Source: a virus. Taken from it: a stretch of 64,000 bases of DNA. Positions within the stretch are counted from its first letter, which is position 1, and the number at the start of each line of letters is the position of its first letter. The position numbers and the translations under genes are program-made. This document shows, one piece after another, positions 43,689 through 60,417 of this stretch. Where the stretch lies: the IMG/VR virus record IMGVR_UViG_3300017735_002163, positions 1 through 64,000 of that record; one strand, given 5' to 3'. The notes beneath the pieces are model-generated. The model was given only the letters and a program-made list of their open reading frames with translations, did not search any database and was not told where the DNA came from.

Positions 43689-44159
43689 ATGTTTTTTGGA
43701 AAAGATACAAAATTAGATAGGGAGGCTGTTTTCGAACAGTTAAAAATAGACGAAGGAGTAGTAAATGAAATTTACCACGATCATCTCGGATATCCGACTT
43801 TTGGTGTGGGTCACTTGGTATTGGAGTCAGATCCTGAGCACGGAGCAGAAATTGGCACTCCGGTTTCAGAAGAAAGAGTACGAGAGTGCTTTGAAAAAGA
43901 CCTCGACACCGCAATTAGCGAGTGTGAATTGCTATACGAAGCAGGGGTATTTGGAGATTTACCAGACGAAGTCCAGCAGATCCTGGTCAATATGATGTTT
44001 AATATGGGCAGGACAAGACTAAGTAAGTTTAAGAAAATGCATGCCGGAATACTTGAAGGGGATTGGAAGGAAGCGGCCAAGGAAGGCAGAGATTCAAGAT
44101 GGCATAAACAAGTTACTAATCGTGCTGAAAGATTAATGGAAAGATTAGAGAACGTATAA
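43689..44159 (+). CDS. T4-type lysozyme (GH24)
   Basis: DEG...YHDHLGYPTFGVGH (E-x8-D-x5-T), NMMFNMG, SRWHKQVTNRA. Confidence 0.93.
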   Translation: MFFGKDTKLDREAVFEQLKIDEGVVNEIYHDHLGYPTFGVGHLVLESDPEHGAEIGTPVSEERVRECFEKDLDTAISECELLYEAGVFGDLPDEVQQILVNMMFNMGRTRLSKFKKMHAGILEGDWKEAAKEGRDSRWHKQVTNRAERLMERLENV

Positions 44160-46832: not shown

Positions 46833-48890
46833 TTATTTACTTGTAGCAATAAATATTCCATCCCAATCTTTTGGAAGTGTTTGAGTCTTTTGAAATTCGC
46901 AACGCTCAATCCACATATCATAATAACCTTTCATCTTGCCATCAAAATGCGTCTCTAATAATTTACACAATTTAATTGCTCTATCAAACTCTTGGTTTCT
47001 ATAATGTGTATGCATTGCATTATGCATCTCTTTAGACTTAGCATGTTTATCTGCTTTATAATCAAGCACAGTGTATATTTCAATGCCTATTGTTTTACCT
47101 TTAACTGCCAAGTCATCAACTTTTAAATAAAAGAATTCGTTTTTAGTTTTGTGATATGTACTACCACCGACTAATAGTAAGCACCCGTATTCCTTACACT
47201 TAGACTCAATTCGTGCGGCAGTTGATACAGCATCTCCAAGTACATCATAACTATGTCTGCTTGTAGAGCCCATCTCACCGAGATAACCAACGCCAGTGTT
47301 AATGCCAGCCCCCATACCAATTGGAGGTCTTCCTTCTGCTGTGATCTTATCATTAAATTTCTCCACTGCTCTCAGCATATCCAAACCTGTTTGCACTGCT
47401 GAGTGTTCATGCTTTGCATCATCGTTTGGTGCATTGTGTATATGCATACTTGCATCACCTATGTACTTGATAATCATACCGTCTGCATCAAGTACAGGTT
47501 GTGTGATAGCATCCATATAACCATTCATTAGTTTTGTGAGTCCTTGTACATCATCTCCAAAACTTTCACCTAATGGTGTGAAGCCACGCAAGTCTGAGAA
47601 GCATATTGATATCTCTCGCTTCATGCCTTCTTTGATCAATGCAGGATTTTCTTGTAACATACGCACAACTGTGGGTGAACAATATCCTGCAAATTGCTTT
47701 TCTATTTCTTGTCTTAATTTAAACTGTATCCAGAAGTTGTTAAAACTTGCCTGTGTAAATATTAAAAATGTTGCTATTGCAGGATATGTAGCATCAAATA
47801 AAACTAAGTTTGCTGTATAAGAATGTATAGTATAATAAGCAATAGACCCTATAATGCTTATTATACTAAACAATCCTGCCCATACAGGCAACTTGTATAT
47901 TGCTAAAGCAACTAATACCATGCTCAACAACGCACACACAAGCTCTGTAAGCGACGATAATTCTGATCTGGTAATGTTACTCCCATCTATAAAATTCTGT
48001 AGCATGTGTGCTTGTATATGCTGTGGATATATGTTGCCTATCGGAGTGGGCACCGGATTGGCAACACCTTCTGCACTCACACCCACTATGACGAACTTGC
48101 CGCCCATATTCGGTAAACTGTCTGCACCAGTGTATTCTATTTCTTCGAATGTATTATTAAAACGTATGTATGCTGTTCCATCGCCTTGTGTTACTACAGG
48201 AACAAATGGTGGTATAGCAAATTCTTGTATTCCTATCTCACTTGTTTTAATCATGTAACTGGGTTGACCAGTTTGCACTCTTAACATTTCAATTGCAAAC
48301 GAAGGATATATTTTATCCGCTACTGTGATTGCAAGTGGGTATGTTCTTGTTTGATTATCTGGTTGTGGTGCTGATGCATTAATACCAATACCAGATGCTA
48401 CTGTTTCCAACTCTGCTATATTTGTTACCAGATTTTTCCAAGTCAATAAGTGTTGCTGAGCCGGGCTCGGGCCTATTGTACCAGTCCCTATATGCGGGCC
48501 GGAACTCCTCACCCCTTTGGAACTTGGGGTCTGGGATAAAACTATTCCGTTTCCTTTTATCCATGATGCAAAGACTTCGTCTCCTCCAAAACGATCTACT
48601 TCAGGGAACATTAATGTAAAACCTACTATCCCTTGATTTTTTTGTCTTATGTCGTATATCATTTGTGCATAAGACTGCCTGGGAAATGGATACTGGCCTA
48701 AAGCATCTAAACTTTTTTCACCGAGATTAATTATAACTACTTCGTTACTTTGTTTTGTTTCGTCAAGTTGTTGGTAATAATCAAATGTCTGCGAACGCAA
48801 ACTTTGTAGTGGTGTAGGATCTGATATTCTCAAACCAAGTAATAAGCATATTGTTACTGCTACTGCCCAGCCGCTGTATAACCATTTCAT
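46833..48890 (-). CDS. CHASE2-domain class III adenylate cyclase
   Basis: N-terminal TM, CHASE2 (QYPFPR, VPTPIG), 3 TMs, FSDLRGFT, KYIGDA, GINTG, YDVLGDAVSTAARIE. Confidence 0.93.
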   Translation of the reverse strand: MKWLYSGWAVAVTICLLLGLRISDPTPLQSLRSQTFDYYQQLDETKQSNEVVIINLGEKSLDALGQYPFPRQSYAQMIYDIRQKNQGIVGFTLMFPEVDRFGGDEVFASWIKGNGIVLSQTPSSKGVRSSGPHIGTGTIGPSPAQQHLLTWKNLVTNIAELETVASGIGINASAPQPDNQTRTYPLAITVADKIYPSFAIEMLRVQTGQPSYMIKTSEIGIQEFAIPPFVPVVTQGDGTAYIRFNNTFEEIEYTGADSLPNMGGKFVIVGVSAEGVANPVPTPIGNIYPQHIQAHMLQNFIDGSNITRSELSSLTELVCALLSMVLVALAIYKLPVWAGLFSIISIIGSIAYYTIHSYTANLVLFDATYPAIATFLIFTQASFNNFWIQFKLRQEIEKQFAGYCSPTVVRMLQENPALIKEGMKREISICFSDLRGFTPLGESFGDDVQGLTKLMNGYMDAITQPVLDADGMIIKYIGDASMHIHNAPNDDAKHEHSAVQTGLDMLRAVEKFNDKITAEGRPPIGMGAGINTGVGYLGEMGSTSRHSYDVLGDAVSTAARIESKCKEYGCLLLVGGSTYHKTKNEFFYLKVDDLAVKGKTIGIEIYTVLDYKADKHAKSKEMHNAMHTHYRNQEFDRAIKLCKLLETHFDGKMKGYYDMWIERCEFQKTQTLPKDWDGIFIATSK

Positions 48891-48910
48891 AGTTATATTT
48901 ATCGTAAATA

Positions 48911-49627
48911 TCAGTCAGCAAATGCTCGTTCGAGCATGAAGTCGCCCATTTCGCCAGTGTTTCCTTCTTCCCAATTTAAATATGAAAAACGCTCTCTGCA
49001 TTCTTTATTAAGTGAGGGAGAACCGCAAACCATAACAGCATCAGTTTCTTTGGTTAAAGGTGAACCGAGAACTGGTTCAATGTGATTCCAAAACCTGCCT
49101 TGCCTAAAATAGTTTTCTCTGGTTACAGAAGGAATGTATAAAAATGGCATCATACCTGATATATCTTCCATGCTGTCCTTGTATGTAAGTTCTGCTACTT
49201 CTCTTACAGTGTGGAACAAATAGACGTTGTCGAACCTATCGTATGTTGCAGGGTCTTTAGCAATGCTTACAAACGGTGCTATGCCTGTTCCTGTTGCTAA
49301 CATTACTAAATTCTTTTTGGGTAATAAGTAATCACAAACTAAACTACCTGTAGTTTTTGGACCTACTAATATATCGTCACCTATTTTAATATTTTGCAAT
49401 TTACTTGTGAGAGGGCCATCTTGAACTTTAATACTGAGGAACTCTAAGTGGTCATCATAATTAGTGCTTACAATACTGTATGCTCTCATTATTTTTTTAG
49501 GTTCGAGCTCTAATCCTATCATAGCAAACTCTCCGTTTTTAAAACGGAAGGTTTTATCTCTTGTAGTTTTAAAAGAAAATAAGCGATCGCTGTAGTGTGT
49601 GATTTCAGTAACTTGCTCTTTATTCAT
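48911..49627 (-). CDS. fpr: Ferredoxin-NADP+ reductase, bacterial type
   Basis: RAYSIVS, GPLTS, ATGTGIAPF, VTRE, VCGSP, ERAF. Confidence 0.93.
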   Translation of the reverse strand: MNKEQVTEITHYSDRLFSFKTTRDKTFRFKNGEFAMIGLELEPKKIMRAYSIVSTNYDDHLEFLSIKVQDGPLTSKLQNIKIGDDILVGPKTTGSLVCDYLLPKKNLVMLATGTGIAPFVSIAKDPATYDRFDNVYLFHTVREVAELTYKDSMEDISGMMPFLYIPSVTRENYFRQGRFWNHIEPVLGSPLTKETDAVMVCGSPSLNKECRERFSYLNWEEGNTGEMGDFMLERAFAD

Positions 49628-49641
49628 GTAGATATTTATTA

Positions 49642-50160
49642 CTATCTGTTCTTGGAGCATTCTTTTCTGGCACGACTCCAGACATGAAAATTGTTTGCCA
49701 CAATAGCGGCCATAAAATAATTTGCACCAGCGAAATCCTCGTCTGTTAAAACAGTTCGTTTGGTACCGATAAACATAGCCGGTATTATAACTACTGATTT
49801 TAAAAATACTATTTCATGTAACTCAGGCTTTTTATCCAGTAGCGGATTTGCTTCCTCAATACAATCATACTTTACTGCTTCAACTGTGTTGTATATATCT
49901 AACAACTGAAATGCTGTAAACATTGCCCAGGATAATGGCGAAGCAGGTTCTTTCAGTGGTGGTAGATCTAAAGTGATGGCTGGCGGGTATTCGTATTCGA
50001 ATGTTGCTTGTCGAACTTCCGCTAAAACTTCTTTGCTATAGCAACACCCATGGCCATTGTTTATAAAAAATATTTGCTCAGGAGAAAGATTTGCTGGGAG
50101 ATCTGTTGCGTAACAGTTAAGAGAAAGTAGCGACAACATAATCATTGCCGCTAATTTCAT
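49642..50160 (-). CDS. Secreted/membrane hypothetical protein
   Basis: Signal peptide, EEANPLL motif, hydrophobic helices; AAGGAG RBS. Confidence 0.7.
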   Translation of the reverse strand: MKLAAMIMLSLLSLNCYATDLPANLSPEQIFFINNGHGCCYSKEVLAEVRQATFEYEYPPAITLDLPPLKEPASPLSWAMFTAFQLLDIYNTVEAVKYDCIEEANPLLDKKPELHEIVFLKSVVIIPAMFIGTKRTVLTDEDFAGANYFMAAIVANNFHVWSRARKECSKNR

Positions 50161-50279
50161 TATTCGCACTCCTTAGGATTACTCGAACAATAGTCTTTAA
50201 TTTGTTTTATTAACATTTTAATATCATCCTCATTGTCCTGCTTATCTTTGCGATTAGATAACAGGCTTAATCCTTTTTT
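50160..50279 (-). other. Candidate programmed -1 frameshift site and 37-codon extension
   Basis: A_AAA_AAG at 50273-50279, 7-nt spacer, hairpin at 50237-50265, open -1 frame ending in a TAATG overlap. Confidence 0.7.
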
Positions 50280-50551
50280 GGTGCTTCTGGTTCTTTTTGT
50301 AGTTCGTCAGTTTGTTTGTCAACTTCGGTTGCGACAGTTTCTACAACACCTTGTGCAGTGTTAATAGTTACGTCTGCAATTGCTTTTGCATCGTTAGTTA
50401 CTGCAACTGCCATTGTGGCGGCTCCGCCAACAACGCTGTCCACAGTACCTGTGACAATCTCTGTTCCTGCATTCCAGGCCCCTCCAACTGAGGCGCACCC
50501 TACAGTGCCTAAACAAAGTACCGCTACGAAGAACTTAATATGTGTATTCAT
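50267..50551 (-). CDS. Small lipoprotein
   Basis: GGAG RBS, lipobox TVGC, Ala/Val/Thr amphipathic helix. Confidence 0.8.
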   Translation of the reverse strand: MNTHIKFFVAVLCLGTVGCASVGGAWNAGTEIVTGTVDSVVGGAATMAVAVTNDAKAIADVTINTAQGVVETVATEVDKQTDELQKEPEAPKKD

Positions 50552-50611
50552 ATTATCTCCATGGTTAAATAGCATGCCAACTGCAATGCTACACTATTAT
50601 TTATCTGAAAG

Positions 50612-50920
50612 TTAGATGCCGTGGCTGTTAAAAGGACGATCTCCTGCTAAACTGTGTTGATCGTGTAGGTGTAATTCGTAGGCCAAGATATCTTTGGTAT
50701 TTTGGCAGTCGGTAGTGTGCAGTAGTTTTAATATTTCCATTCTGTTTGCTTCTTCTATTTGATGTACTACGTCACACCACATATAAAATACTGCAAATAT
50801 ACTTGGCACAATGATAATATAAAATACTAACCATGGGAAAAAGAAAGTGATAATTAAAACGTGTACGCCTATGACTGATAGTGAATATATCTTGAGACTA
50901 TTGAGCCATTTACTTAGCAT
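50612..50920 (-). CDS. Small membrane protein
   Basis: Two hydrophobic segments. Confidence 0.65.
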   Translation of the reverse strand: MLSKWLNSLKIYSLSVIGVHVLIITFFFPWLVFYIIIVPSIFAVFYMWCDVVHQIEEANRMEILKLLHTTDCQNTKDILAYELHLHDQHSLAGDRPFNSHGI

Positions 50921-51077
50921 CGACCTTCAGGTTTAGTTGTTCTATGTATGCATTGCTGTGCCAATAAGTATCTAACACAATGTCAGCCACAAGAGCAATT
51001 AACACCAATGTTAGTATTACAGAAAGGTATAGGTTTATACCCGCAGATATTTTTAACCACTTAATCATATGCTTCAT
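50910..51077 (-). CDS. Small membrane protein, early gene
   Basis: One TM; promoter TTGACA-17-TATAAT at 51085-51113 directly upstream. Confidence 0.65.
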   Translation of the reverse strand: MKHMIKWLKISAGINLYLSVILTLVLIALVADIVLDTYWHSNAYIEQLNLKVDAK

Positions 51078-51119
51078 AGGATATATTATAGTTGATATTG
51101 TAGGACTTGTCAACCGGTT

Positions 51120-52007
51120 TTAATTGCTACCGTTTACTGTTACTGAACATCCTGCTGTGTTATAACATACACCTGTTATACTGTAACTGCCGGCCGATGA
51201 TGTCATGTTTTGATCTAAGTCAAGTGTGTAAGCACCAGTACCGTATGTTAAATCAATTGCCGCTGTTGCGTTATTGCCACCACGTTGATTAACATCAACA
51301 CTATGCCCGTCACCATCTAACACAATGTCTGCCCATTTAACACCACCGTTGCCTCGTTGATATAACACCACATCATTGTAATCACCTGTTATCTCTATAA
51401 AGCCATCGTGTCCTGATTTGCCTAACTGCCTGTGGTCTACATCATTGTAGTCACCTGTTATAATGTTTGCCAAATGATGAGGACCTGCGTTAGTACCGCC
51501 TGACGATCTGTTAGTATCTGTTTGGCTACTTGCTAAAGTATTGTTGGAGCCATCTATGGTCCAATATGCTTCGTGGCCGCCTTCTTCGTCTATGTCAAGA
51601 TTGCCTGTTAAATGTTTACCTTGCCACACTTTGAGATCATTATTACTACCAGTTGCATCTACTTTTGCAAAGTTATCGTTGCCGCCATTGCCTTGAAATA
51701 AATCAAACGTGTTGTTACTGCCATTTAAGTTACCTTCAAATAAATGACTGTAGCCTTGCTGATAAAATGTTAAGTTATTAGACGCACCAAGTAATTGACT
51801 ATTGATGTCTATGCCTTGGATTACATTGTCGTATCCATCTTGTGTTACCGTTAGAGTAAGATTGTCACCTGCTTGGTCAATGAGAATAATGTTGTCTGCA
51901 TTTGCTGTCATAGGCATTAATAAAAACATGCCCAGTATAATATATCCCAATACTAAAAGAGGGGTATCTTTTGGTTTCATTTCGTTTAGTTTTTTATCTA
52001 TGTTCAT
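51120..52007 (-). CDS. Curlin-like repeat protein
   Basis: Signal peptide; repeated QxGxxN and GxxN units; in an operon with csgFG. Confidence 0.78.
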   Translation of the reverse strand: MNIDKKLNEMKPKDTPLLVLGYIILGMFLLMPMTANADNIILIDQAGDNLTLTVTQDGYDNVIQGIDINSQLLGASNNLTFYQQGYSHLFEGNLNGSNNTFDLFQGNGGNDNFAKVDATGSNNDLKVWQGKHLTGNLDIDEEGGHEAYWTIDGSNNTLASSQTDTNRSSGGTNAGPHHLANIITGDYNDVDHRQLGKSGHDGFIEITGDYNDVVLYQRGNGGVKWADIVLDGDGHSVDVNQRGGNNATAAIDLTYGTGAYTLDLDQNMTSSAGSYSITGVCYNTAGCSVTVNGSN

Positions 52008-52008
52008 A

Positions 52009-53196
52009 TTAACCTTGTGTTTGTCTTATGTATATATTTATACCTGAACAATCATTTACACATATAACGTTAGTTCTATTCTCTATGTCTGTTTCAAGTC
52101 TTGCATTACTGCCAACTGGCACTTTAACACTGATAGTACCATTAACTTCTCTGTAGAACCATATAAATCCAGAACGATCTATTATGGTATTAAATTGTGT
52201 TTTTGGATCAAACCCTGATGCTAATGTACCTGTTATTATATCAACGCCTTGTTGTCCTTCTGTTTTTTCTGACAACACTGCAAGTTTATCTGCTTCGTCT
52301 AATATTTCTAATAAATCCTGTAAAAAATCAACACCTAATATGTCAACATCTAATTCACTGAATTCTAAGTCTATGCTATCTTCATTTTGATCGTCGAGCA
52401 AATTTTCTTCTAAGAAATCTATATCGAGATCACTGAATGCTAAGTAGTCAATGCCCTTTCTTGCTTCTATTTGTTGTTCTTCTGCTTCTGTGATTTCTGC
52501 TGGTTCACTTACAATAAACATGTTGTCTATCATATTTAAATTTAAATCTTGTATAACCACTGGCTGAGTTGGCGGTGTTTCAAACGTGCTTACCATTACT
52601 GCTTGATAGGCTTCTTCTAATACAACTGTTCCGCCATCATTAGTAACTGTGATAGCACCGGACGGTCTACACCCTTCTTCTAATTTTACCTTGTCTGTGC
52701 AATTTGCATCTGGCAATAGTATAACTAAACTCCTGCCTAATTCATCTACTGTGGTTGTAAAATCTGTTCCACGCACACCAATTGTTGCTGTGGGAGTTTG
52801 TATGGCTATGTTTTCTTTTGGTACAAGTCCTAATCCGCCTGTGGCAAATCTTGCTGTGCCTGACACAAAATTCATTGCCATTTTACTTTTGCTTGGATCG
52901 GGGTCGTAGACATACTCATTGATTACTATCAACGTATTTTCTGTCAGACTGACCTGTGTTTTATCTACGAATTCAATTTTAAGTCTACCTGCTGTAGTTT
53001 CTACATTGTCCATACTAACAATTGTAGAATCTAAAACTGCAGACAGTTTTTCACCAGATGTTCGTTCTATACTACCCGGATTTCCAGTCTGCTCAAATAC
53101 GCCGCCTATCCTTTCAGCGGCGCTTGAGTTAGACAAAAACGAAAACAGTACAACAAAACTAATCTTTCTGAGTAATGCTAACTGTTGCGTTTTCAC
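52009..53196 (-). CDS. FecR-domain exported protein
   Basis: Signal peptide; D.VET..GR..I.F.D.T...L.EN, G.ARF, IQTPTATIGVRGTDF; acidic C-region. Confidence 0.85.
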   Translation of the reverse strand: MKTQQLALLRKISFVVLFSFLSNSSAAERIGGVFEQTGNPGSIERTSGEKLSAVLDSTIVSMDNVETTAGRLKIEFVDKTQVSLTENTLIVINEYVYDPDPSKSKMAMNFVSGTARFATGGLGLVPKENIAIQTPTATIGVRGTDFTTTVDELGRSLVILLPDANCTDKVKLEEGCRPSGAITVTNDGGTVVLEEAYQAVMVSTFETPPTQPVVIQDLNLNMIDNMFIVSEPAEITEAEEQQIEARKGIDYLAFSDLDIDFLEENLLDDQNEDSIDLEFSELDVDILGVDFLQDLLEILDEADKLAVLSEKTEGQQGVDIITGTLASGFDPKTQFNTIIDRSGFIWFYREVNGTISVKVPVGSNARLETDIENRTNVICVNDCSGINIYIRQTQG

Positions 53197-53881
53197 TGTC
53201 TATATCTAAATCCATATGACCGTAGCATGAAGTTGCACCAGTGGCACATGTACCGGAACTTTGAATTAAATCAATGTCTCCGCCTGAACCGTCGTATACT
53301 ACTTTCATGTACTGATCTGCACCATCAGTTTGGCTGGTTACAATATCGTTATTATCACCAGTTAGGTCAAAATTCCAAGTTGCATCATCGACTTCAATGT
53401 CAATGTCCCATACGTTGCTGTCACCTAAGATTGCTAAGTCGAAATCTAATCTTTCTGCACTTGCGGCTGATCCTAAGTCAAAGTCAAACGTATTTGAATC
53501 ACCTTGAATTGTAGCGAGTATATTGCCTGTATCGGCTGAACCTGTGTCACCAACTTTGATGTCCCAGATATTACTGCTACCAGTAAAAGTCCAATCGTAT
53601 GTACTGCTGTCTGCAGTTATACTACCAAAAAACTCATTACTGTTACCTATTTGGTCTAAATCGATATTCAATGATGAACCAACTATAGTTAGATCACTAC
53701 TTTGATCTGTATCGCCGGCTATCTTGTTACCAAAACCTTGTTGTAAAATAGTTAAATTCAGTGTGTCACCAACTTGATCAATTAAGATTTCATTATCAGT
53801 TGCACCTGCTGAATAAACTGCTCCACTAAAGGTCATTAACCCTACTACCAAACTTAATGCTGATAAAGTTTTATTCAACAT
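53159..53881 (-). CDS. Curlin-like beta-solenoid repeat protein
   Basis: Signal peptide; IDQVG, QQGFGN, DQIGNSN, GSSN, GDSN repeats. Confidence 0.75.
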   Translation of the reverse strand: MLNKTLSALSLVVGLMTFSGAVYSAGATDNEILIDQVGDTLNLTILQQGFGNKIAGDTDQSSDLTIVGSSLNIDLDQIGNSNEFFGSITADSSTYDWTFTGSSNIWDIKVGDTGSADTGNILATIQGDSNTFDFDLGSAASAERLDFDLAILGDSNVWDIDIEVDDATWNFDLTGDNNDIVTSQTDGADQYMKVVYDGSGGDIDLIQSSGTCATGATSCYGHMDLDIDSENATVSITQKD

Positions 53882-54788
53882 TTGTTTCTCCTATGTTTAA
53901 ATTTTCTACAGGTGGGAGACTTTCAGCATCATTGCTGGTAATCGTCCAGTAACCTCTATCGTCACCTTGTTCGATGAGTGCAAGTACTGCCGCTTCCGTG
54001 GCGCTCCTTACTGCCCATGTCACACTTTCGTTAGAAGTAATTCCTGTTTCTAATTCTAATAATTTTGTATCCATGTCAAGAAAACGAAATACATCTCCTC
54101 CCATGCCTACACTAAGTATTGTCTTGTATGTCTGTACGTTAAGTATAACTTCGCCTGTTAAAGTACTAACAGCACGTAGACTAACAATAATGCTGTCTCG
54201 TCTGTATTGAGCACTTCCGCCGATACCTAAATATCTGGCTCCGTTACCTCCTGTTTCTATGTTACTATCGTACCCAACTATACCGCCTTCAAGTAAAATA
54301 CCCGCAAACAACATTGGTTGTAGTTTTTGGCTCTCTTTACCTGCTTTGGCATAATCGTCTCTGGTACTGCGGATAATTTGTCTTTCTCTGACCAGGTTAT
54401 CCAGACCTACTCCTCTTTCAACAACACGGAACCAAGTACCGTTTGCAGTCTCACCTGCGCCTGCCGCCTTAAGAGCATCAATTAACAATGCTTTTGCACC
54501 CTGCGTTACTGCTGTGCTGAACAATGCTATATTGTCTTTTTGTTTTCTTTGACCTGTTAAGTCAGAGAACTGATATACTGCAACCACAGGCATTACTTCT
54601 GCAGGTGGTAACTGTCTTAATCTTTCATATGTTGGTAATTCGACTTGTTTTGGTTCTTCGACACACTCCATTACATTGTCGTAACACCACTCGCCTGTTA
54701 ATGCATTATTAGGCAATGACATTGATGCACACCCCGACATTATCGTGCTAAAAAGTAGTGTAGCAATTAGCGAACTATAACTTTTCAT
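53871..54788 (-). CDS. csgG: Curli secretion channel CsgG
   Basis: Lipobox MSGC; VAVYQFSDLTGQ, FSTAVTQG, WFRVVER, ERQIIR, GGIVGYDSN. Confidence 0.95.
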   Translation of the reverse strand: MKSYSSLIATLLFSTIMSGCASMSLPNNALTGEWCYDNVMECVEEPKQVELPTYERLRQLPPAEVMPVVAVYQFSDLTGQRKQKDNIALFSTAVTQGAKALLIDALKAAGAGETANGTWFRVVERGVGLDNLVRERQIIRSTRDDYAKAGKESQKLQPMLFAGILLEGGIVGYDSNIETGGNGARYLGIGGSAQYRRDSIIVSLRAVSTLTGEVILNVQTYKTILSVGMGGDVFRFLDMDTKLLELETGITSNESVTWAVRSATEAAVLALIEQGDDRGYWTITSNDAESLPPVENLNIGETNVE

Positions 54789-54794
54789 ATTGTC

Positions 54795-55337
54795 TTATCC
54801 GCCGCCGATGGCAACTCCTACAGGTATATCTATTGTAGTCATTGTTCCGTCTGAGCTTACAATGGTTAGCCTAATTATTTCTATGCCGTCATCTCCAACC
54901 ATTCTTTCGTATGTGACTGTATTTCCTTCGATAGTGAACACACCATAGTCTGCTCCGTCTTCGTTACCGAACATACTGTCTACTAACTGTCTACTAATTT
55001 GACTGTAAATTCTACTTTCTAAATTTCTCAAAAATTTATTAAGTGTTGAATTTTCTTCTTCACGCTGAATTCTTAATAGCTCAGCGTCTATTTGATCTTT
55101 AATTTTGTCTTTACGACTTTTTTGTTGATTCTCAATGGTTAGGTAATGGGCGCCTGTTCCTACACCACTGAAACTTGGATTTTTAAATTTATGTACTAAT
55201 TCGTCTGCTAATGCTAACGGACTCATGAATAATAGTCCTAACATTATACCGAATGCAAATGCTTTGAATAAATCACTACCAGACCATATACGTGGTCCTA
55301 CTTGCGATTTAAGTAACTCCCAATCTTTATCTCTCAT
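54795..55337 (-). CDS. csgF: Curli assembly component CsgF
   Basis: Signal peptide then LVHKFKNPSFSG; FLRNLESRIYSQ; TTIDIPV. Confidence 0.88.
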   Translation of the reverse strand: MRDKDWELLKSQVGPRIWSGSDLFKAFAFGIMLGLLFMSPLALADELVHKFKNPSFSGVGTGAHYLTIENQQKSRKDKIKDQIDAELLRIQREEENSTLNKFLRNLESRIYSQISRQLVDSMFGNEDGADYGVFTIEGNTVTYERMVGDDGIEIIRLTIVSSDGTMTTIDIPVGVAIGGG

Positions 55338-55644
55338 CTGTCTGTACCTCTGACTGTAGTGTGGCAAGAGCCTCTTTTTGCTTGGCTTCTTTTATTACCT
55401 TCTGTCTTTCTTTGTATTCTAAAACTACATTTACTTTTTGCTGTAGTCGTATCATATCCTGATCAAGCATTCGTGTTTGATCAATTACACGTATTAATGC
55501 CATATGCATTGTTTCTAATTCGGGGTCTATTTTCTCACCTATAAACCACCAAACATAATATATAAAATATCCTAATCCTACACAAAGTACTATTGGAAAG
55601 CCAAATGTGTTAATTGCTTCAGCAATTCCATTCACATCTTCCAT
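55327..55644 (-). CDS. Small membrane protein (TM plus coiled coil)
   Basis: INTFGFPIV...GYFIYYVW; similar to the adjacent gene. Confidence 0.7.
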   Translation of the reverse strand: MEDVNGIAEAINTFGFPIVLCVGLGYFIYYVWWFIGEKIDPELETMHMALIRVIDQTRMLDQDMIRLQQKVNVVLEYKERQKVIKEAKQKEALATLQSEVQTDER

Positions 55645-55940
55645 TAGTCTCTCCTTGCATCAATTTTGTTATCTTCTACAAAATTTTCTGCTCGTGCTAC
55701 TCTGTCGATGTCAGGGCTTAGTTCAAGAGCACTACTTACAAGCAAGTCAATTTTCATCATCTCATTGCTCATTGTTCTGGCTCGATTTTCTAAACTATTA
55801 CAAAATATAGTTAGAGTTTTTATTTGCCCTACTATGCCTTCAAGTATTTGTTTGATAACAAGGAATATGAAAAAACCCATTACCATACTGCCGGCAATTG
55901 GTGCTCCAACTTCTGCTATTAATCCAAAAATTTCATTCAT
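55644..55940 (-). CDS. Small membrane protein (TM plus coiled coil)
   Basis: IAEVGAPIA...GFFIFLVIK. Confidence 0.7.
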   Translation of the reverse strand: MNEIFGLIAEVGAPIAGSMVMGFFIFLVIKQILEGIVGQIKTLTIFCNSLENRARTMSNEMMKIDLLVSSALELSPDIDRVARAENFVEDNKIDARRD

Positions 55941-56047: not shown

Positions 56048-56055
56048 TATTTATC
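56048..56055 (-). promoter_or_regulatory. Late promoter for the curli-like operon
   Basis: GATAAATA upstream of the first operon gene. Confidence 0.6.
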
Positions 56056-56079: not shown

Positions 56080-56107
56080 AAAAAAAAGCACTCCGAAGAG
56101 TGCTTTT
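56080..56107 (-). terminator. Intrinsic terminator with UUCG tetraloop
   Basis: Minus strand GCACTC-TTCG-GAGTGC-TTTTTTTT. Confidence 0.9.
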
Positions 56108-56133: not shown

Positions 56134-59100
56134 TTATTGTAAGTTGATTAATGCTTCAACAACACCGTTACCATCTTCGTTTTCGCTAATTGCTTTACCG
56201 ATGATTGTACCTGACTTAACGTTTTCTGGGTCAGCGCCTTTGGCTCTACCTGGAATACCTGATGTTACAAGTAAGTCACCTTTGCCAATTGGACCAACAA
56301 CTTTAACTGGTACCCTTCCGCATAATGCTACTGGAGTTCCACCTGCTAATTCACTGTTCATCAAGTATGCTGGGTCTGTGGAAACAACACCTGCTACACG
56401 GTAATCTTCATCACCTGCACATTCTGTTATTTCTGCATCGCCACCAAACACAACAACTGTACCTGCATCATACACTGCATCTGCTGAATAGTTCTCAGCC
56501 AAATCCGCATATCTTGCCGTTGTTGCTGTTGCACTAACTACGCCAGCACTAAAGTTACCGGAACCGTCTCTGGCAACCACTGTACTTGCTGTATTGGCTG
56601 ATGTTGCGTTAACATTTAATGTAGCACTACCACTTGATGCGCCACCTGTTAAGTATGAACCTGCCACAACTGCTGTAATATCACCTACGTTGCCTGTTAG
56701 TCCACTTATGCGTCCTGTTACGTGATCGTATACGTCATTACCTGTTGGTATTGATGTGCCGCCGTTTGCAACTGCACCAGTAGAAACACTTAATGTAACA
56801 CTACCACTTGAACCGCCGCCACTTAAATGTGTACCTGCTGTAACACCAGTGATGTCACCAACGTTACTTGTCCAACCGGAGTCATTGTTAAACTGACTTA
56901 GTTTAAATTCACCAATTGCTTTCTTTCTCTCAGCGCCTGAATCAAGTAAAATAAGTTCGTCATTAGCACCGCTAACATCTGCTGTCATATCAGTAAGTTC
57001 TGATAAGTCTAAAGTGATGCTTGGTGTACCTGAAGTACCTCCGCCGTCTAAACCTGTACCTACTGTAATACCTGTTAAGTAACCAGTGTCTGTTAAACTA
57101 ATAACACCTGTTGAGCTGTTATATGTAACACCAGTTCCACCACTAACTAATCCTCTAACATGTGAATCGCTTAGTGCTAAACTAACACTACCACTTGATC
57201 CACCGCCAGTTAAACCGTTACCAGCACTTACGTTTGTTATATCACCAACTGTTGTTGAGTAACCGTATGCTTCAATCTTATCAGCAACTGCTTTTGCTGT
57301 CATTAACACTGTGTCTGAATCACTAAATGCTTCTGAACTTAATTGTATTGCCGCTCCAGCAAAGTCACCAACTGTTAAATCTGGTAGTCTTGCACTTGCA
57401 ATAGTACCTGATGCTATTTGACTTGCACCAATTGATATTGAAACTTCGCCACTTGCAGTTAAACGTCCTTTTGCATCAACTGTAAATGTTGATACTGTGC
57501 CAGCGTCACCAAATGATCCAACTGATGCGGCTGTATCTGCTAATGCTAAACTAACACTACCACTTGAACCACCACCTGTTAAACCTGAGCCTGCACTTAC
57601 GTTTGTTATATCACCAACTGTTGTTGAGTAACCATAACTTAGAATTTTATCTTGTACTGCCGCCGATGTCATTAATGTTGTATCGTTATCTGCAAAACTT
57701 TCTGTGCTTAACTGAATTGTTGCTCCTGCAAATTCACTAATTGTTAAACCACTTACGTTTAATGTTGCTGTACCACTTGTAGCACCGCCACTTAAACCAG
57801 TTCCTGCTACTACACCAGTAATAAAGTTTGGATCTGTTAGACTGATTACACCACTTGATAAAGTAATACCAGCACCACCACTAAAGTGATTTCTAACTTG
57901 TGCCGCACTTGGACCTGTGTAACTAATAACACCTGTTGTGCTGTTGTATGCTAATGCACCATCACCACCGTTATCTGTTACAGAGATAGCACCTCTGGCG
58001 TCTGCGTCTGCATACATTGTAGGCTCACTATAACTTATAACACCTGTTGTGCTGTTATATGCTAAGTCACCACTTGCACTAATTGCCGCTCTTGCTCTTG
58101 CAGTTGTATGGTATTGATTAGTACCTTCTGATAAATTACTTGTGCTGTGATTAGCAATACTGCTAACTGTACCAGTTACATCACCAGTTACATCACCAGT
58201 TACATCACCAGTTACATTACCAACTACTGCGCCTCTAAATGTTGTAGCAACAAAATCTGTTGATACTGCCCATCTGTCGTTTGACTCGTCCCATAGTAAC
58301 TGTACATTTGTAGCATCACCACGTTCAATTTCAATACCTGCATTGGCTGTAGGGGAACCTGATGCATTGTTGTTTAGAACGATGATGTTGTCATCAACTG
58401 TTAAAGTTTCTGTATTAACAGTAGTTTGTGTACCGTTAATTGTTAAGTTACCATTAACTATAATGTTGTCACTAAATGTTTTAGCACCTGCTACTGTTTG
58501 AGTACCACTTGTTCTAACTACAGTATTATCTACTGAGAATGAACCGGAACTAACATCTAAGCCGTCACCTGCTGATACATGTGCTCTAACTTGCGCCGCA
58601 CTTGGACCTGTGTAAGTAATTACACCAGTTGAGCTGTTATAAGCAAGACTTCCGTCTCCGCCTGCGTCAGTAACACTAATTGCACTTCTGGCATCTGCAT
58701 CTGCATACATAGTTGGGGTTGTATAAGACATAACACCTGTTGTGCTGTTATATGCTAAGTTGCCACCTGCACTAATTGAAGCTCTTGCTAATGCATCAGT
58801 ATACTGAGTGATAGTTGTTGCAATAGCACCGTCTGTTACAGTAATACCTGTACCAGCACTAATATGAGCTCTTACTTCTGAAGCACTTGGGCCTGTGTAA
58901 GTAATAACACCTGATGTGCTGTTGTATGCCAATGATCCGTCACCACCTGCATCTGTTACACTAATTAATCCTTTTGCATAGCTCTCATCAAGTGATATTT
59001 CGTCTGCATCAACAGTAATACCGTTGCCTTCACCAATGTTTAATGTAACTGCACCTGCTGTGCCGCCACCTGTTAAACCTGATCCTGCGCCTACGCTTTC

Positions 59101-60417
59101 AATGTCACCTGCGTCATTAGTAAAACTAAATACACCAGTTGAGCTATCGTATGCTAAATCGCCACTTGCACTAAAGTGTGCTCTTGTCTCTGCCGCACTT
59201 GGTCCTGTGTAAGTAATTACACCAGTTGAACTATTGTATGCCGCACTACCATCACCACCTGCATCTGTTACACTAATAAGTGCTCTTGCAGTTGAATCTG
59301 TAAGCATGTTTTGATAAGTTGTACCATCGTTTGTAAATGCCCATGAACCTTCTGACTCGTCCCATTTTAGGAATACGTCTGCACTTGAGGCTCTGTCTAC
59401 TTGGAAACCTGTGTCTAATGCACTACCAGTTCCAGCATTTAATAAAATAATTTCATCTGCAATTTCTAATGCACTACCTGAACTTGTTAGTGTACCAGTA
59501 ATTTCCATATTACCTGAGAATGTTTTGTTACCTGCTAACGTTTGGTTACCAGTTGTTCTCATTACAGTACTGTCAACAGCAATTGTACCAGTACTAATAT
59601 CAATACCTGATCCACCGTTAAAGTGAGCTCTTACCTCTGCGGCACTTGGACCTGTGTAAGTAATTACACCATTGTCTAATGCTAATGAGCCATCGCCGCC
59701 TGCATCAGTAACACTTAAGAAAGTTAATGCATCTACATAACCTTTGCTTGCCGCATCACCATCTGCTACTGGAGTAGAGATATTGTTAATATGGTTGCTG
59801 TCTAAATTAACATTTGAACCAAACTTAACACCACCTGCTGAAGTAATTGATTTGTTTGCTGTTAAAACAACATCTGTTTTCAGTTGGATGTCACCACCTG
59901 ATGTTAATTCAATATCACCTGTTCCTGTTGAAACAATGCTAATATTTTGGTTGGCGTCTGCACTAAACTGAATAGTACCTGAGTTATCAGATAATACTTG
60001 TTGTCCGTTAACGTATAAAGATCCCGGACCAACGTATATGTCTCGCCATTGTTTTGTTTCAGAACCTAAGTCGTATGTAACGTCTGCATTAGGTATAATG
60101 TGTCCTGAGAACGCACCTCCACCTAAGAAACTTTGTACACCGCTTGTAAAAGTTGCTGAAGAAGTATCAAGTGCAATAGTGGCCGATCCTGCGTCTGCTC
60201 CACCACTTAAACCTGAGCCTGCTACAACGGCAGTAATATCACCTGTTGCCGCCGCTACTACTTCTGAATTTTTTGCAAGTCTGTGACCACCTGCTGTTGT
60301 ACCATCATGTACTATGACGGTATTGTTAGTTGTATCGATCGTAATCTCACCCGCTAATCCGGTAAAACTACCGTGTTGCGTCGAGGTACCTCGTCTTCTT
60401 TGAATTGCTGTTGCCAT
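56134..60417 (-). CDS. Long repetitive tail fibre/virion fibre protein
   Basis: Mtd-N-like IQRRRGT...HDG.TAGG; repeats VTDAGGDGSLAYNSTTGVITYTGPS and GDIT.V.AG.GL.GGG; C-terminal ADLAE chaperone-like domain. Confidence 0.9.
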   Translation of the reverse strand: MATAIQRRRGTSTQHGSFTGLAGEITIDTTNNTVIVHDGTTAGGHRLAKNSEVVAAATGDITAVVAGSGLSGGADAGSATIALDTSSATFTSGVQSFLGGGAFSGHIIPNADVTYDLGSETKQWRDIYVGPGSLYVNGQQVLSDNSGTIQFSADANQNISIVSTGTGDIELTSGGDIQLKTDVVLTANKSITSAGGVKFGSNVNLDSNHINNISTPVADGDAASKGYVDALTFLSVTDAGGDGSLALDNGVITYTGPSAAEVRAHFNGGSGIDISTGTIAVDSTVMRTTGNQTLAGNKTFSGNMEITGTLTSSGSALEIADEIILLNAGTGSALDTGFQVDRASSADVFLKWDESEGSWAFTNDGTTYQNMLTDSTARALISVTDAGGDGSAAYNSSTGVITYTGPSAAETRAHFSASGDLAYDSSTGVFSFTNDAGDIESVGAGSGLTGGGTAGAVTLNIGEGNGITVDADEISLDESYAKGLISVTDAGGDGSLAYNSTSGVITYTGPSASEVRAHISAGTGITVTDGAIATTITQYTDALARASISAGGNLAYNSTTGVMSYTTPTMYADADARSAISVTDAGGDGSLAYNSSTGVITYTGPSAAQVRAHVSAGDGLDVSSGSFSVDNTVVRTSGTQTVAGAKTFSDNIIVNGNLTINGTQTTVNTETLTVDDNIIVLNNNASGSPTANAGIEIERGDATNVQLLWDESNDRWAVSTDFVATTFRGAVVGNVTGDVTGDVTGDVTGTVSSIANHSTSNLSEGTNQYHTTARARAAISASGDLAYNSTTGVISYSEPTMYADADARGAISVTDNGGDGALAYNSTTGVISYTGPSAAQVRNHFSGGAGITLSSGVISLTDPNFITGVVAGTGLSGGATSGTATLNVSGLTISEFAGATIQLSTESFADNDTTLMTSAAVQDKILSYGYSTTVGDITNVSAGSGLTGGGSSGSVSLALADTAASVGSFGDAGTVSTFTVDAKGRLTASGEVSISIGASQIASGTIASARLPDLTVGDFAGAAIQLSSEAFSDSDTVLMTAKAVADKIEAYGYSTTVGDITNVSAGNGLTGGGSSGSVSLALSDSHVRGLVSGGTGVTYNSSTGVISLTDTGYLTGITVGTGLDGGGTSGTPSITLDLSELTDMTADVSGANDELILLDSGAERKKAIGEFKLSQFNNDSGWTSNVGDITGVTAGTHLSGGGSSGSVTLSVSTGAVANGGTSIPTGNDVYDHVTGRISGLTGNVGDITAVVAGSYLTGGASSGSATLNVNATSANTASTVVARDGSGNFSAGVVSATATTARYADLAENYSADAVYDAGTVVVFGGDAEITECAGDEDYRVAGVVSTDPAYLMNSELAGGTPVALCGRVPVKVVGPIGKGDLLVTSGIPGRAKGADPENVKSGTIIGKAISENEDGNGVVEALINLQ
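58171..58218. repeat. 12-bp tandem repeat (accagttacatc x4, last copy imperfect) encoding [N/D]VTG
   Basis: Directly visible in the sequence. Confidence 0.85.

Follow-up and report, generated by a model that had tools for sequence, protein, structure and literature searches.

Organization of the locus

The window, i.e., the whole 64,000-nt stretch of viral DNA analyzed here (positions 1 to 64,000 of IMG/VR record IMGVR_UViG_3300017735_002163), carries a curli-like cassette. The ORF list, Pfam, and PHROGs placed all the named genes on the minus strand (as are all cassette features given below) in the following order: two small membrane proteins, CsgF, CsgG, curlin-like protein A, an FecR-domain protein, curlin-like protein B, five inserted genes, and a CHASE2 class III cyclase. 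From the first membrane protein to curlin B, the genes overlap or are separated by at most 41 nt. The gene set and the tight packing given in a preliminary description of this DNA were borne out by the ORFs, Pfam, PHROGs, hhalign, and a structural model. A terminator-like hairpin (56084–56107) with a 10-pair stem and a T run ends the upstream gene of a 1427-aa fibre-like protein and marks the putative 5′ limit of the cassette transcription unit. After the hairpin, 108 nt upstream of the first gene, lies an ATAAATA motif (56048–56054), which lacks one base of the T4-type late box. The late motif of the preliminary description corresponds to this single heptamer, but the exact TATAAATA late box is absent near the cassette. 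ATAAATA is common in the window and often merely overlaps stop codons; at this position it is only a candidate promoter.

The small proteins at the head of the cassette, protein 1 (98 aa; 55644–55940; hydrophobic segment at residues 7–40) and protein 2 (105 aa; 55327–55644), are single-TM paralogues that match phrog_18771 (8e-23 and 1.5e-23, respectively). No Pfam family was found for them (for protein 1, even at E ≤ 5). Protein 1 is encoded by the best conserved gene of the cassette, with 59–86% identity across loci as compared with 44–65% for FecR. The CsgF-like protein (54795–55367; phrog_35372) covers positions 7–132 of the 132-position profile PF10614 (8e-16); its start codon is uncertain, and a hydrophobic signal-like segment is found at residues 33–58. 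The CsgG-like outer-membrane lipoprotein pore (53871–54788) matches PF03783 (3e-47) and, over residues 52–288, Escherichia coli CsgG (4uv3; 1e-46). Sequence reading shows a signal-like N terminus in each of CsgF, CsgG, curlin A, curlin B, and FecR.

The cyclase gene starts 2.2 kb past the end of curlin B, in line with the distance of about 2 kb reported before, and five further genes fill the interval. This variable island encodes a 67-aa membrane protein (50910–51113) and a 102-aa membrane protein (50612–50920), each with homologues in 20 loci; a 102-aa lipoprotein-like protein (50267–50575) with a hydrophobic N terminus followed by Cys and homologues in 25 loci; a 175-aa membrane protein (49642–50169) with a weak DUF5658 match (PF18902, 2.5e-4) below the cut-off; and a cytoplasmic flavoprotein resembling ferredoxin-NADP reductase (48911–49660; PF00175 and PF00970), found near the cassette in 10 loci. 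Homologues of the 175-aa protein (28 loci) usually flank the cyclase gene, often at a distance of 9 bp or less or overlapping its ORF.

Related cassettes in other viruses

The first report of a viral curli region is that of Zaragoza-Solas et al. 2020 (PMC7029224). In SAR11 podo- and myophages, Wittmers et al. 2022 (PMC9599517) described a type VIII secretion (T8SS) cluster with FecR and an adenylate cyclase whose gene order matches that of the window. The region as they present it starts with one or two small genes, followed by CsgF, CsgG, a curlin-repeat protein, FecR, a second curlin-repeat protein, and the cyclase, i.e., the genes and order of the window; according to their accessible text, CsgE, CsgC, and CsgD are missing there, as they are from the window. 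We found the cassette order to be common to the window, Pelagibacter phage HTVC008M (gp011–019), Methylophilales phage Melnitz (gp97–104), and 80 IMG/VR loci, which are metagenomic contigs sampled as the nearest by FecR similarity. CsgG, CsgF, and the small TM genes are present in 61/61 loci with at least 3.5 kb of upstream sequence, and the cyclase is present in all 39 loci that extend 9 kb or more downstream (as a complete ORF in 36 and cut by the locus end in 3). This co-occurrence of csgG, FecR, and CHASE2-cyclase, a check proposed in the preliminary description, shows that the cyclase and csg genes are not distributed independently in these loci.

The cassette itself is already published, and gene content and order make the window almost certainly a new member of it. 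Its proteins are only 27–51% identical to those of HTVC008M and Melnitz, and the five genes between curlin B and the cyclase are insertions relative to the published region. The phage also looks much larger than the published carriers; it is a large uncultured T4-like marine phage of a lineage with genomes of probably ~350 kb. Wittmers et al. label the small upstream genes as histidine kinases, whereas a Pfam search found no kinase domain in those of the window. Moreover, CHASE2 has 0 occurrences in the accessible text of that study, which reads FecR as an iron regulator.

Curlin-like proteins and FecR-domain protein

Curlin-like protein A (240 aa with a signal peptide; 53159–53881) and protein B (295 aa; 51120–52007) are homologous (hhalign probability 99.6%, E 1.8e-23). 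Protein B matches Pfam Curlin_rpt (3e-7) and the profile of a solved curli subunit (8c50; 4.5e-5). Protein A scores only 0.032 against Curlin_rpt, below the cut-off, but its AF2 model of a β-solenoid is confident (pLDDT 83.7), and curli CsgA (8c50, Z 17.8) ranks first among its structural matches. The locus shares with the E. coli curli system (CsgBAC/CsgDEFG) the CsgG pore, its CsgF partner, and secreted curlin-repeat β-solenoid subunits. It differs in being phage-borne, in its longer and more divergent subunits, and in the addition of FecR, the CHASE2-cyclase, and two small membrane proteins. CsgE, CsgC, and GerE-type (CsgD-like) domains were each found in 0/5 viral records (this one and four related records), which agrees with the earlier statement that none of the three genes is recognizable.

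The lack of CsgE, the normal periplasmic gate, in these records would suit a second use of the CsgG/CsgF pair, as a gated pore in the outer membrane that sets the time of lysis in the manner of pinholins or secretins, with the curlin-like proteins as plugs or accessories. This was suggested for Melnitz by Buchholz et al. (PMC9004378). A lysozyme-family gene lies 2.7 kb from the cassette (43689–44159), and lysozyme homologues follow the cassette in two other loci (L084 and L085). However, the families matched by the nearby lysozyme include those of tail/baseplate lysozymes in addition to endolysins, and the proposal, in the accessible part of that article, assumed that fibre genes were absent, whereas the cassette has two conserved curlin-like genes (curlin B in 66/67 loci). 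An outer-membrane pore of such size would also leave the sensor cyclase unexplained, and we consider a lysis pore distinctly unlikely.

The exported FecR-domain protein (395 aa; 52009–53196; phrog_37870) consists of a signal peptide, an FecR β domain (residues ~30–195; PF04773 at 64–156, 6e-12), an acidic low-confidence linker (~200–315), and a small C-terminal β domain (~318–392) that has no recognized fold and is not curlin-like. The AF2 model is poor (pLDDT 56) and gives weak Foldseek matches to the periplasmic domains of anti-sigma factors (4m0h and 6ovk). The periplasmic PF04773 fold is shared with FecR/FecI/FecA iron citrate signaling. By Pfam and TM analysis, however, PF04773 is the only domain behind the signal peptide: no internal TM segment, anti-sigma N-domain, or FecR_C match was found, and the cassette has neither a sigma factor nor a TonB-type (TonB-dependent) receptor gene. 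On these grounds, and because its bacterial kin pair with CHASE2, we reject a role as an iron anti-sigma factor. The same observations bear on the idea, one option raised by Wittmers et al., that CsgG/CsgF serve as a channel through which nutrients or iron compounds enter, while FecR acts as an iron-dependent regulator. The absence of CsgE from the five records would fit import, but such FecR proteins pair in bacteria with CHASE2 sensors and not with iron uptake genes, and this explanation is highly improbable.

Cyclase and exchange of its catalytic domain

The receptor cyclase (685 aa; 46833–48890) contains a TM segment, a periplasmic CHASE2 domain (~24–310; PF05226, 2e-32), a TM bundle (~309–400), and a class III cyclase domain (~420–612; PF00211, 1e-16; CyaB 3r5g, 5e-22). 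Alignment to CyaB places the key residues at D433, K475, D479, D549, S556, and R560. The adenine-specifying Lys/Asp pair noticed earlier is indeed present as Lys475 and Asp549, but Ser556, which replaces the transition-state Asn, had been overlooked. Two output classes are found among the cassettes, the canonical Lys/Ser-Thr/Asn/Arg and the Lys/Asp/Ser/Arg of the window. Because Ser stands in place of the transition-state Asn, the latter class may be slow or make another product; cAMP is the somewhat more probable product.

Two loci, L016 and L018, share 99.3% identity over a stretch of 15.4 kb, and their similarity stops near codon 320 of the cyclase gene. CsgF to FecR are 100% identical between them and CHASE2 is 92% identical, whereas the catalytic domains share 34%. 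Across loci, catalytic-domain distances correlate with those of any other gene at 0.45 at most. This pattern indicates that the catalytic domain is swapped by recombination between copies.

Free exchange of the output domain is what would be expected of a loosely attached regulator, and it thus favors the published hypothesis (PMC9599517, PMC7029224) that fibre production is the whole point of the cassette, serving aggregation, “sibling capture,” or a shield against superinfection. Wittmers et al. proposed such aggregation and superinfection roles, with FecR and the cyclase regulating expression; physical coupling to the pore would not be involved, and only cassette or host expression would be controlled. 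Also in its favor, the cassette holds every part of a minimal T8SS together with two curlin-like substrates. On the other hand, no transcription factor was found in the cassette or in the five viral records, no cNMP-binding domain that could serve as receiver was found in these records (all incomplete), and FecR has neither an anti-sigma domain nor a TM segment. Melnitz-infected cells showed no clumping in the accessible account of Buchholz et al. (PMC9004378). Fibre production as the sole purpose is fairly unlikely.

FecR and CHASE2 in bacteria

In a survey of 151 bacterial genomes of one class, in which CHASE2 and FecR listings were matched by hand, the FecR listing contains a match no more than 10 kb away for at least 30 of the 150 CHASE2 matches listed. 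Small FecR ORFs directly upstream of CHASE2 account for many of these pairs, and Pfam found FecR within two genes of CHASE2 in 11/40 fetched loci. The pairing of FecR and CHASE2 genes is common in bacteria, as the preliminary description had stated. Among the listed matches in the 151 genomes, CsgG adjoins CHASE2 just once, on a phage-like contig. The bacterial pairs and the window have in common that the gene of a CHASE2 receptor is accompanied by that of an exported FecR-domain protein; the bacterial pairs differ in that they are usually adjacent and unlinked to CsgG and that their output may be a kinase, and the phage FecR has an extra acidic linker and C-terminal domain. The Burkholderia “BiofilmReg” operon (PMC5192318), for example, encodes a response regulator, an LysM-FecR protein, and a CHASE2 histidine kinase.

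Sinorhizobium meliloti CyaD1/CyaD2/CyaK are likewise inner-membrane receptors with CHASE2 and a class III cyclase. Their activation requires the outer-membrane β-barrel protein NsrA (PMC7529298, PMC13001267), and the FecR-domain periplasmic protein smc02177 is encoded by a Clr-target gene of the same regulon (PMC5498481). In contrast to the window, the outer-membrane partner is not CsgG, curlin-like substrates are lacking, and Clr is the known receiver, for which the window has no known counterpart. These cyclases answer an external protein signal through the outer-membrane barrel, and bacterial CHASE2/FecR pairs often adjoin secretion parts of several different kinds (T1SS, a Slam-like barrel, and ShlB). 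Both observations would fit a cassette that is an envelope sensor, in which FecR and the curlin-like proteins serve as ligands or baits, in the periplasm or at the surface, that report envelope damage or an incoming second phage to CHASE2, and the cyclic nucleotide alters the course of infection. Against it, the model of curlin A and the profile of curlin B resemble ordinary curli subunits, and we regard this sensor as unlikely.

Co-variation of FecR domains with CHASE2 and CsgG

Among 38 non-redundant loci, the highest correlation of pairwise identities, all of which share phylogeny, was between the FecR N-domain and CHASE2 (Spearman 0.91; partial 0.80 given CsgG, CsgF, and curlin A). Within two clades, CHASE2 follows the FecR N-domain (0.41 and 0.56; 0/1000 permutations each) and shows no relation to CsgF, CsgG, curlin A, or the FecR C-domain (−0.03 to 0.18). 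The FecR C-domain instead follows CsgG and curlin A (0.63–0.85). The CHASE2 alignment favors the FecR N-domain tree over the tree of CsgF, CsgG, curlin A, and FecR C-domain (ΔlnL 177, AU 1e-6). Against coupling, the FecR N-domain alignment favors the tree of its physical neighbors over the CHASE2 tree (ΔlnL 60, AU 0.036), and co-transfer with CHASE2 is therefore not supported. Every tree fits the data of another gene much worse than does that gene's own tree, and the column-bootstrap intervals overlap (0.75–0.90 for FecR N-domain/CHASE2 and 0.66–0.84 for FecR N-domain/CsgG).

The co-variation suggests a link between the secretion pore and the CHASE2 sensor through the FecR protein. We lean slightly toward a functional coupling of FecR to CHASE2, and an additional bridge to CsgG or curlin is conceivable but somewhat doubtful. 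The division between the two FecR domains counts against fibre production with a merely regulatory FecR; the co-variation of the N-domain with CHASE2 would also be expected of the envelope sensor.

Proposed mechanism

Here, we propose that the cassette unites two modules that are unlinked in bacteria, one for curli secretion and the other the widespread sensor pair of FecR and CHASE2, with the FecR protein as the joint. Its N-terminal domain would work with the periplasmic CHASE2 domain and its C-terminal domain with CsgG, curlin A, or both. How much cyclic nucleotide the infected cell makes would then depend on the state of the pore or fibre, or on something that enters through the pore, and the output part (TM bundle plus catalytic domain) would be an exchangeable module of two classes. 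Taken as a whole, this joint reading has about an even chance of being correct, and the absence of clumping by Melnitz-infected cells counts against it as well. As for the trans-envelope module of the preliminary description, the tie between cassette and cyclase is real, and the relay from FecR to CHASE2 is backed indirectly by co-variation, but the idea is largely in print already (PMC9599517); lysis timing and superinfection sensing as cassette roles are guesses. What is added here to the published cassette is the bacterial FecR–CHASE2 pairing, the domain-wise co-variation, the apparent catalytic-domain swap, and the Asp549/Ser556 variant class in the window.

Gene content and published background

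The cassette runs from 55940 to 46833 on the minus strand and consists of 13 ORFs, which were assigned by ORF calls, Pfam, and PHROGs. The first two genes encode small single-TM proteins of 98 aa (55644–55940) and 105 aa, which are paralogues assigned to phrog_18771. They are followed by CsgF (PF10614 at 8e-16, above the cut-off and with the profile nearly full), CsgG (PF03783 at 3e-47; solved Escherichia coli CsgG at 1e-46), the 240-aa repeat protein curlin A, a 395-aa FecR-domain protein (PF04773 at 6e-12), the 295-aa curlin B (Curlin_rpt at 3e-7), a variable island of five genes (48911–51113), and a 685-aa protein with a CHASE2 domain and a class III cyclase domain (2e-32 and 1e-16, respectively). 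The csg, curlin-like, FecR, and cyclase genes named in the preliminary description were all confirmed, and the whole CsgF/CsgG/curlin/FecR/cyclase order lies on one strand of a phage genome, as is characteristic of a viral T8SS-FecR-cyclase cassette. A sequence search with the window CsgF gave no match among solved CsgF chains. CsgE-, CsgC-, and CsgD-type domains had no Pfam match among the cassette ORFs, and CsgE (PF10627), CsgC (PF10610), and GerE-type CsgD-like (PF00196) domains were each found in 0/5 viral records, namely the record of the window and four related ones, all incomplete, which bears out the described absence of recognizable csgE, csgC, and csgD. Four of the island proteins are small and of the envelope type (TM, lipoprotein-like, or signal plus TM): 67-aa and 102-aa membrane proteins, a lipoprotein-like protein of 102 aa encoded by a simple ORF at 50267–50575, and a 175-aa membrane protein. 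The fifth is a ferredoxin-NADP-reductase (FNR)-like flavoprotein.

In the available parts of the published reports, CsgF and CsgG were described in pelagimyophages, that is, in some marine myophages as first stated for this DNA (Zaragoza-Solas et al. 2020, PMC7029224), and a lysis-timing pore was proposed (Buchholz et al. 2022, PMC9004378); the main texts of both papers contain no mention of the cyclase, FecR, or CHASE2. The accessible text of Wittmers et al. 2022 (PMC9599517) reports, from podo- and myoviruses, the series "histidine kinase," CsgF, CsgG, CsgA/B, FecR, second CsgA/B, and adenylate cyclase, describes FecR and the cyclase as foreign to bacterial curli operons, and discusses aggregation, superinfection, and import; CHASE2 does not appear in that text. 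A full-text literature search for CHASE2 together with FecR gave no phage paper among the matches listed. The same genes in the same order are present in Pelagibacter phage HTVC008M (gp011–019) and Methylophilales phage Melnitz (gp97–104), where the cyclase directly follows the second curlin gene, and this gene order is also found in 80 IMG/VR loci. With the window, a known cassette gains a new member that adds little by itself; the interpretation in the preliminary description is partly supported and was largely anticipated in print.

The "histidine kinase" label (PMC9599517) was rejected for the small upstream genes. Pfam gave no match to their 98- and 105-aa products at E ≤ 0.01, and a threshold relaxed to E ≤ 5 brought up no kinase family. 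The two proteins contain neither HisKA nor HATPase_c and have only unnamed viral clusters as Atlas neighbors. Judged by these searches, they are not kinases, and the literature label should be corrected. The 98-aa protein is the best-conserved cassette gene product, with 59 to 86% identity across loci where FecR shows 44 to 65% and the cyclase 32 to 80%.

Curlin-like and FecR-domain proteins

By hhalign, curlin A is a homologue of curlin B (probability 99.6%, E 1.8e-23), and the curlin B profile matches the solved curli subunit 8c50 at 4.5e-5. The confident AlphaFold model of curlin A (pLDDT 83.7, pTM 0.77; alignment of 63 sequences) also had 8c50 as its top match among 48,161 chains (VIA; Z 17.8, rmsd 8.8 Å, 192 aligned residues, 21% identity), in a search in which many unrelated β-helices reached Z 10 to 16, and Foldseek against the PDB returned no match to the model at E ≤ 0.001. 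The two genes were upheld as curlin-like by the A/B homology and the 8c50 matches, and their predicted products have the character of secreted curlin-repeat subunits of the CsgA/CsgB type.

The FecR-domain protein has a signal-like N terminus followed by PF04773 at residues 64 to 156 as its only Pfam domain; beyond it, the AlphaFold model contains an acidic linker and a small β domain. No internal TM segment was detected by hydrophobicity, and Pfam found no sigma factor or receptor gene in the cassette. A FecR-type anti-sigma factor was considered and rejected: the cytoplasmic anti-sigma N-domain, TM segment, C-terminal signaling domain, cognate ECF sigma factor, and TonB-dependent receptor are all missing from the protein and its cassette. 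Since the protein combines a signal-like N terminus with PF04773 only and lacks a TM segment, it is not an anti-sigma factor. From this predicted architecture, the cassette FecR is not an iron regulator, contrary to the literature label. In the FecR model, which is of low confidence (pLDDT 56), Foldseek gave weak anti-sigma matches for the N-domain and none for the C-domain. The C-domain was also considered as a curlin repeat and discarded (hhalign probability below 2%).

Cyclase and its two catalytic classes

The cyclase has the layout of a CHASE2 receptor, with PF05226 at residues 13 to 326 (2e-32), hydrophobic segments at 4 to 22 and 309 to 352, and PF00211 at 424 to 606. It aligns with Pseudomonas aeruginosa CyaB (3r5g) at 5e-22. 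By this alignment, we take Asp433 and Asp479 to be the metal-site residues of class III cyclases, Lys475 and Asp549 to be adenine-specifying, and the Asn and Arg positions to serve the transition state. Asp433 and Asp479 are invariant in 60/60 aligned viral cyclases. The adenine-specifying Lys/Asp noted earlier was recovered as Lys475 and Asp549. At the transition-state positions, Arg560 is present, and Ser556 replaces the Asn carried by CyaB and 48/60 viral relatives. These 48 sequences have Ser/Thr plus Asn at the positions of Asp549 and Ser556, as do all seven bacterial CHASE2 cyclases that aligned. The remaining 12 have Asp plus Ser, the Ser being kept in every Asp-type sequence; they are the window, Melnitz, and the IMG/VR loci L004, L005, L015, L018, L026–29, L051, and L080. 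In a catalytic-domain search of a 5.8-billion-protein set, the best 120 matches were all metagenomic and at least 79% identical, with no named cellular source of the Asp/Ser class among them. The conserved Asp/Ser variant may have other kinetics or make another nucleotide product. A cNMP-binding receiver was not found in five viral records, all incomplete.

The catalytic class varies independently of the rest of the cassette among the 60 aligned viral cyclases. Throughout the window's clade, CHASE2 is 68 to 80% identical to that of the window, and the catalytic domain is either 83 to 88% or 33 to 42% identical. In L080, CHASE2 is 34% identical to that of the window and the catalytic domain 81%. 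The loci L016 (1–15421) and L018 (934–16354) share 99.3% identity across 15,421 bp; beyond about codon 320 of the cyclase gene, which is the CHASE2/TM boundary, they have no nucleotide similarity left. Their proteins from CsgF to FecR are 100% identical, CHASE2 92%, and the catalytic domain 34%. In this alignment, the pair is a clean junction for a putative swap of the TM-bundle and catalytic module. An assembly chimera could account for any one pair, though both classes recur with intact ORFs. We read the cyclase output from these comparisons as an exchangeable module, of which the conserved Asn-to-Ser class is one form.

Linkage across viral loci

An IMG/VR scan with the FecR protein gave 123 relatives, from which 80 loci were kept; L034, with a cut FecR ORF, was left out, giving 79 counted loci. 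All 61 loci with 3.5 kb or more upstream carry CsgG, CsgF, and the small TM genes; curlin B is in 66 of the 67 that have at least 1.5 kb downstream, and the cyclase is in all 39 that extend 9 kb or more downstream (as a complete ORF in 36 and cut by the locus end in three). Because the loci were picked by FecR similarity, these counts are conditional on this FecR and do not extend to every CsgG. Among loci selected in this way and with enough flanking DNA, the co-occurrence of csgG, FecR, and the CHASE2 cyclase in phages, proposed as a check, was complete. Loci differ in the length of the spacer that separates curlin B from the cyclase (–27 to 6343 bp), and this spacer is a variable island, mostly of envelope proteins. 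Homologues of the 175-aa membrane protein occur in 28 loci, usually beside the cyclase gene, which makes this protein a possible additional partner. When the 9.1 kb region was compared with phage records by Megablast, no match was obtained, and its relatives were found at the protein level only.

Carrier phage and upstream region

The rest of the window is that of a T4-like myophage, with helicase, primase, UvsX/UvsY, a gp32-like protein, terminase, tail sheath and tube, and a gp15-like sheath stabilizer. The whole record, an 83,376 bp IMG/VR fragment, is 23% complete by CheckV, a 250 kb relative is 66% complete, and contigs of up to 346 kb carry cyclases whose catalytic-region identity is at least 79%. 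These values point to a jumbo T4-like phage of about 350 kb as the probable carrier. The 1427-aa protein encoded immediately upstream of the cassette (56134–60417), with many ~45-aa repeats and a tail-protein N terminus (phrog_9648), is, by these features, probably a long fiber.

The operon had been placed behind a late motif, and this part of the description held weakly: no exact TATAAATA (T4 late box) was found near the cassette, and a single ATAAATA precedes the first cassette gene by 108 nt, behind a terminator-like hairpin. The window has 38 ATAAATA sites against 25 ± 4.7 in shuffles, with 0/100 shuffles reaching 38. ATAAATA was set aside as a promoter; the sites often fall 6 nt ahead of start codons or on stop codons. 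Many stand a few bases before minus-strand starts, for example those of the terminase, sheath, tube, and fiber genes, and may be either late promoters or stop-codon/AT-rich junctions.

FecR/CHASE2 pairs in bacteria

The FecR alignment was also used to scan 185,579 species genomes with two peptide patterns, by which distant bacterial relatives could be missed. This gave four loci on MAG contigs (L084–L087), all with the whole phage cassette and with four different phylum labels. The MAGs are labeled Rhodobacterales, Sphingobacteriales, Saprospirales, and Synechococcus, in that order. L084 and L085 are flanked by T4-like clamp, clamp-loader, RegA, DNA polymerase, and endolysin genes and are therefore read as phage contigs binned into bacterial MAGs; the L086 flank had no PHROG match.

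The earlier statement that bacterial FecR genes often neighbor CHASE2 genes was supported. In one bacterial class, 67 of the 151 genomes searched have CHASE2, 71 have FecR, and 31 have CsgG. At least 30 of the 150 CHASE2 matches listed have FecR within 10 kb (coordinates paired by hand), a lower bound, as 85 further FecR matches lie outside those compared. The bacterial FecR partner is often a 210- to 310-aa frame directly upstream on the same strand. By Pfam, FecR lies within two genes on either side of 11/40 fetched bacterial CHASE2 cyclase genes, also a lower bound, because the high-GC genes were called by longest ORF and some calls are wrong (e.g., L126 and L134). CsgG was near CHASE2 only once among the matches listed from the 151 genomes, on a phage-like contig of G001. 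Three recurrent bacterial settings were seen: a TPR/Slam-like outer-membrane barrel with a FecR protein and a CHASE2 cyclase (e.g., locus L154); a giant FecR-headed cadherin/RTX adhesin with a CHASE2 cyclase and type I secretion genes; and a FecR protein with CHASE2 and a ShlB-type transporter (e.g., locus L162). In L128, L131, L132, L140, and L155, FecR is the N-terminal head of cadherin/Big_9/RTX adhesin-like proteins of 1000 to 2100 aa and more, whose genes adjoin those of a CHASE2 cyclase and of type I secretion.

In the available parts of the literature, a LysM-FecR/CHASE2 kinase operon of Burkholderia is a published FecR–CHASE2 pair (PMC5192318), and the Sinorhizobium meliloti CHASE2 cyclases respond via the outer-membrane protein NsrA (PMC7529298, PMC13001267) and have a FecR-domain gene within their regulon (PMC5498481). 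The bacterial FecR–CHASE2 pairs, together with the single case of CsgG near CHASE2, indicate that the phage cassette joins two sets. In terms of gene neighborhoods, it is a curli secretion set fused with a FecR/CHASE2 sensor pair.

Co-variation of FecR with CHASE2 and the secretion genes

Pairwise-identity matrices were built from 45 loci with all eight genes complete, of which 38 remained after near-duplicate removal. The FecR β domain (FecR-N, residues ~30–195) and CHASE2 gave the highest Spearman correlation of all pairs (0.91), with a partial correlation of 0.80 given CsgG, CsgF, and curlin A; the value for CHASE2 and the catalytic domain of the same protein was just 0.24. An equal-length column bootstrap gave 0.85 (0.75–0.90) for FecR-N/CHASE2 versus 0.74 (0.66–0.84) for FecR-N/CsgG. 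Within two clades of 14 and 17 loci, CHASE2 correlated with FecR-N at 0.41 and 0.56 (0/1000 label permutations each) and with CsgF, CsgG, curlin A, and the small C-terminal β domain (FecR-C, residues ~318–392) at –0.03 to 0.18, and FecR-C correlated with CsgG and curlin A at 0.63 to 0.85. The change along FecR is a smooth gradient: the highest values with CHASE2 segments (up to 0.52) are those of residues 53 to 146, and residues 348 to 394 give –0.02 to 0.12 with CHASE2 and 0.63 to 0.74 with CsgG and curlin A.

The pattern is interleaved on the DNA, in the order curlin A, FecR-N, FecR-C, curlin B, island, and CHASE2, so that simple linkage blocks do not explain it. Tree topology tests gave a mixed result, disagreeing in direction. 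The CHASE2 alignment favored the FecR-N tree over the CsgF+CsgG+curlinA+FecR-C tree (ΔlnL 177, AU 1e-6), and the FecR-N alignment favored the CsgF+CsgG+curlinA+FecR-C tree over the CHASE2 tree (ΔlnL 60, AU 0.036). The co-variation suggests, and does not prove, that FecR-N is functionally coupled to CHASE2 and FecR-C to the secretion part.

Proposed role of FecR

Here, we put forward tentatively, as a possibility that we hold to be rather less than even, that FecR is a two-headed periplasmic adaptor. The FecR C-domain would physically hold the phage-built curli pore or fiber, and the FecR domain would hold the CHASE2 receptor. The secretion or surface state would then give rise to a cyclic-nucleotide signal inside the infected cell. 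With the CHASE2/TM boundary as the junction, phages would exchange a canonical adenylate cyclase output for the conserved Asp/Ser variant or the reverse, and the same logic would apply to the bacterial pairs.

The additions to the published picture are the CHASE2/FecR reading, the two-headed pattern of FecR co-variation, and the exchangeable output with its Asn-to-Ser class. Ocean phages carry the viral curli cassette widely, and the comparison of about 80 copies yields a testable wiring diagram, in which FecR-N goes with CHASE2, FecR-C with CsgG or curlin A, and the cyclase output is exchangeable. If the two-headed reading is true, the FecR domain would relay information from an export device to CHASE2, which would explain the bacterial pairs beside type I secretion adhesins, Slam-like barrels, and ShlB. 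If this wiring is right, it would also offer a first approach to the signals sensed by CHASE2 domains.
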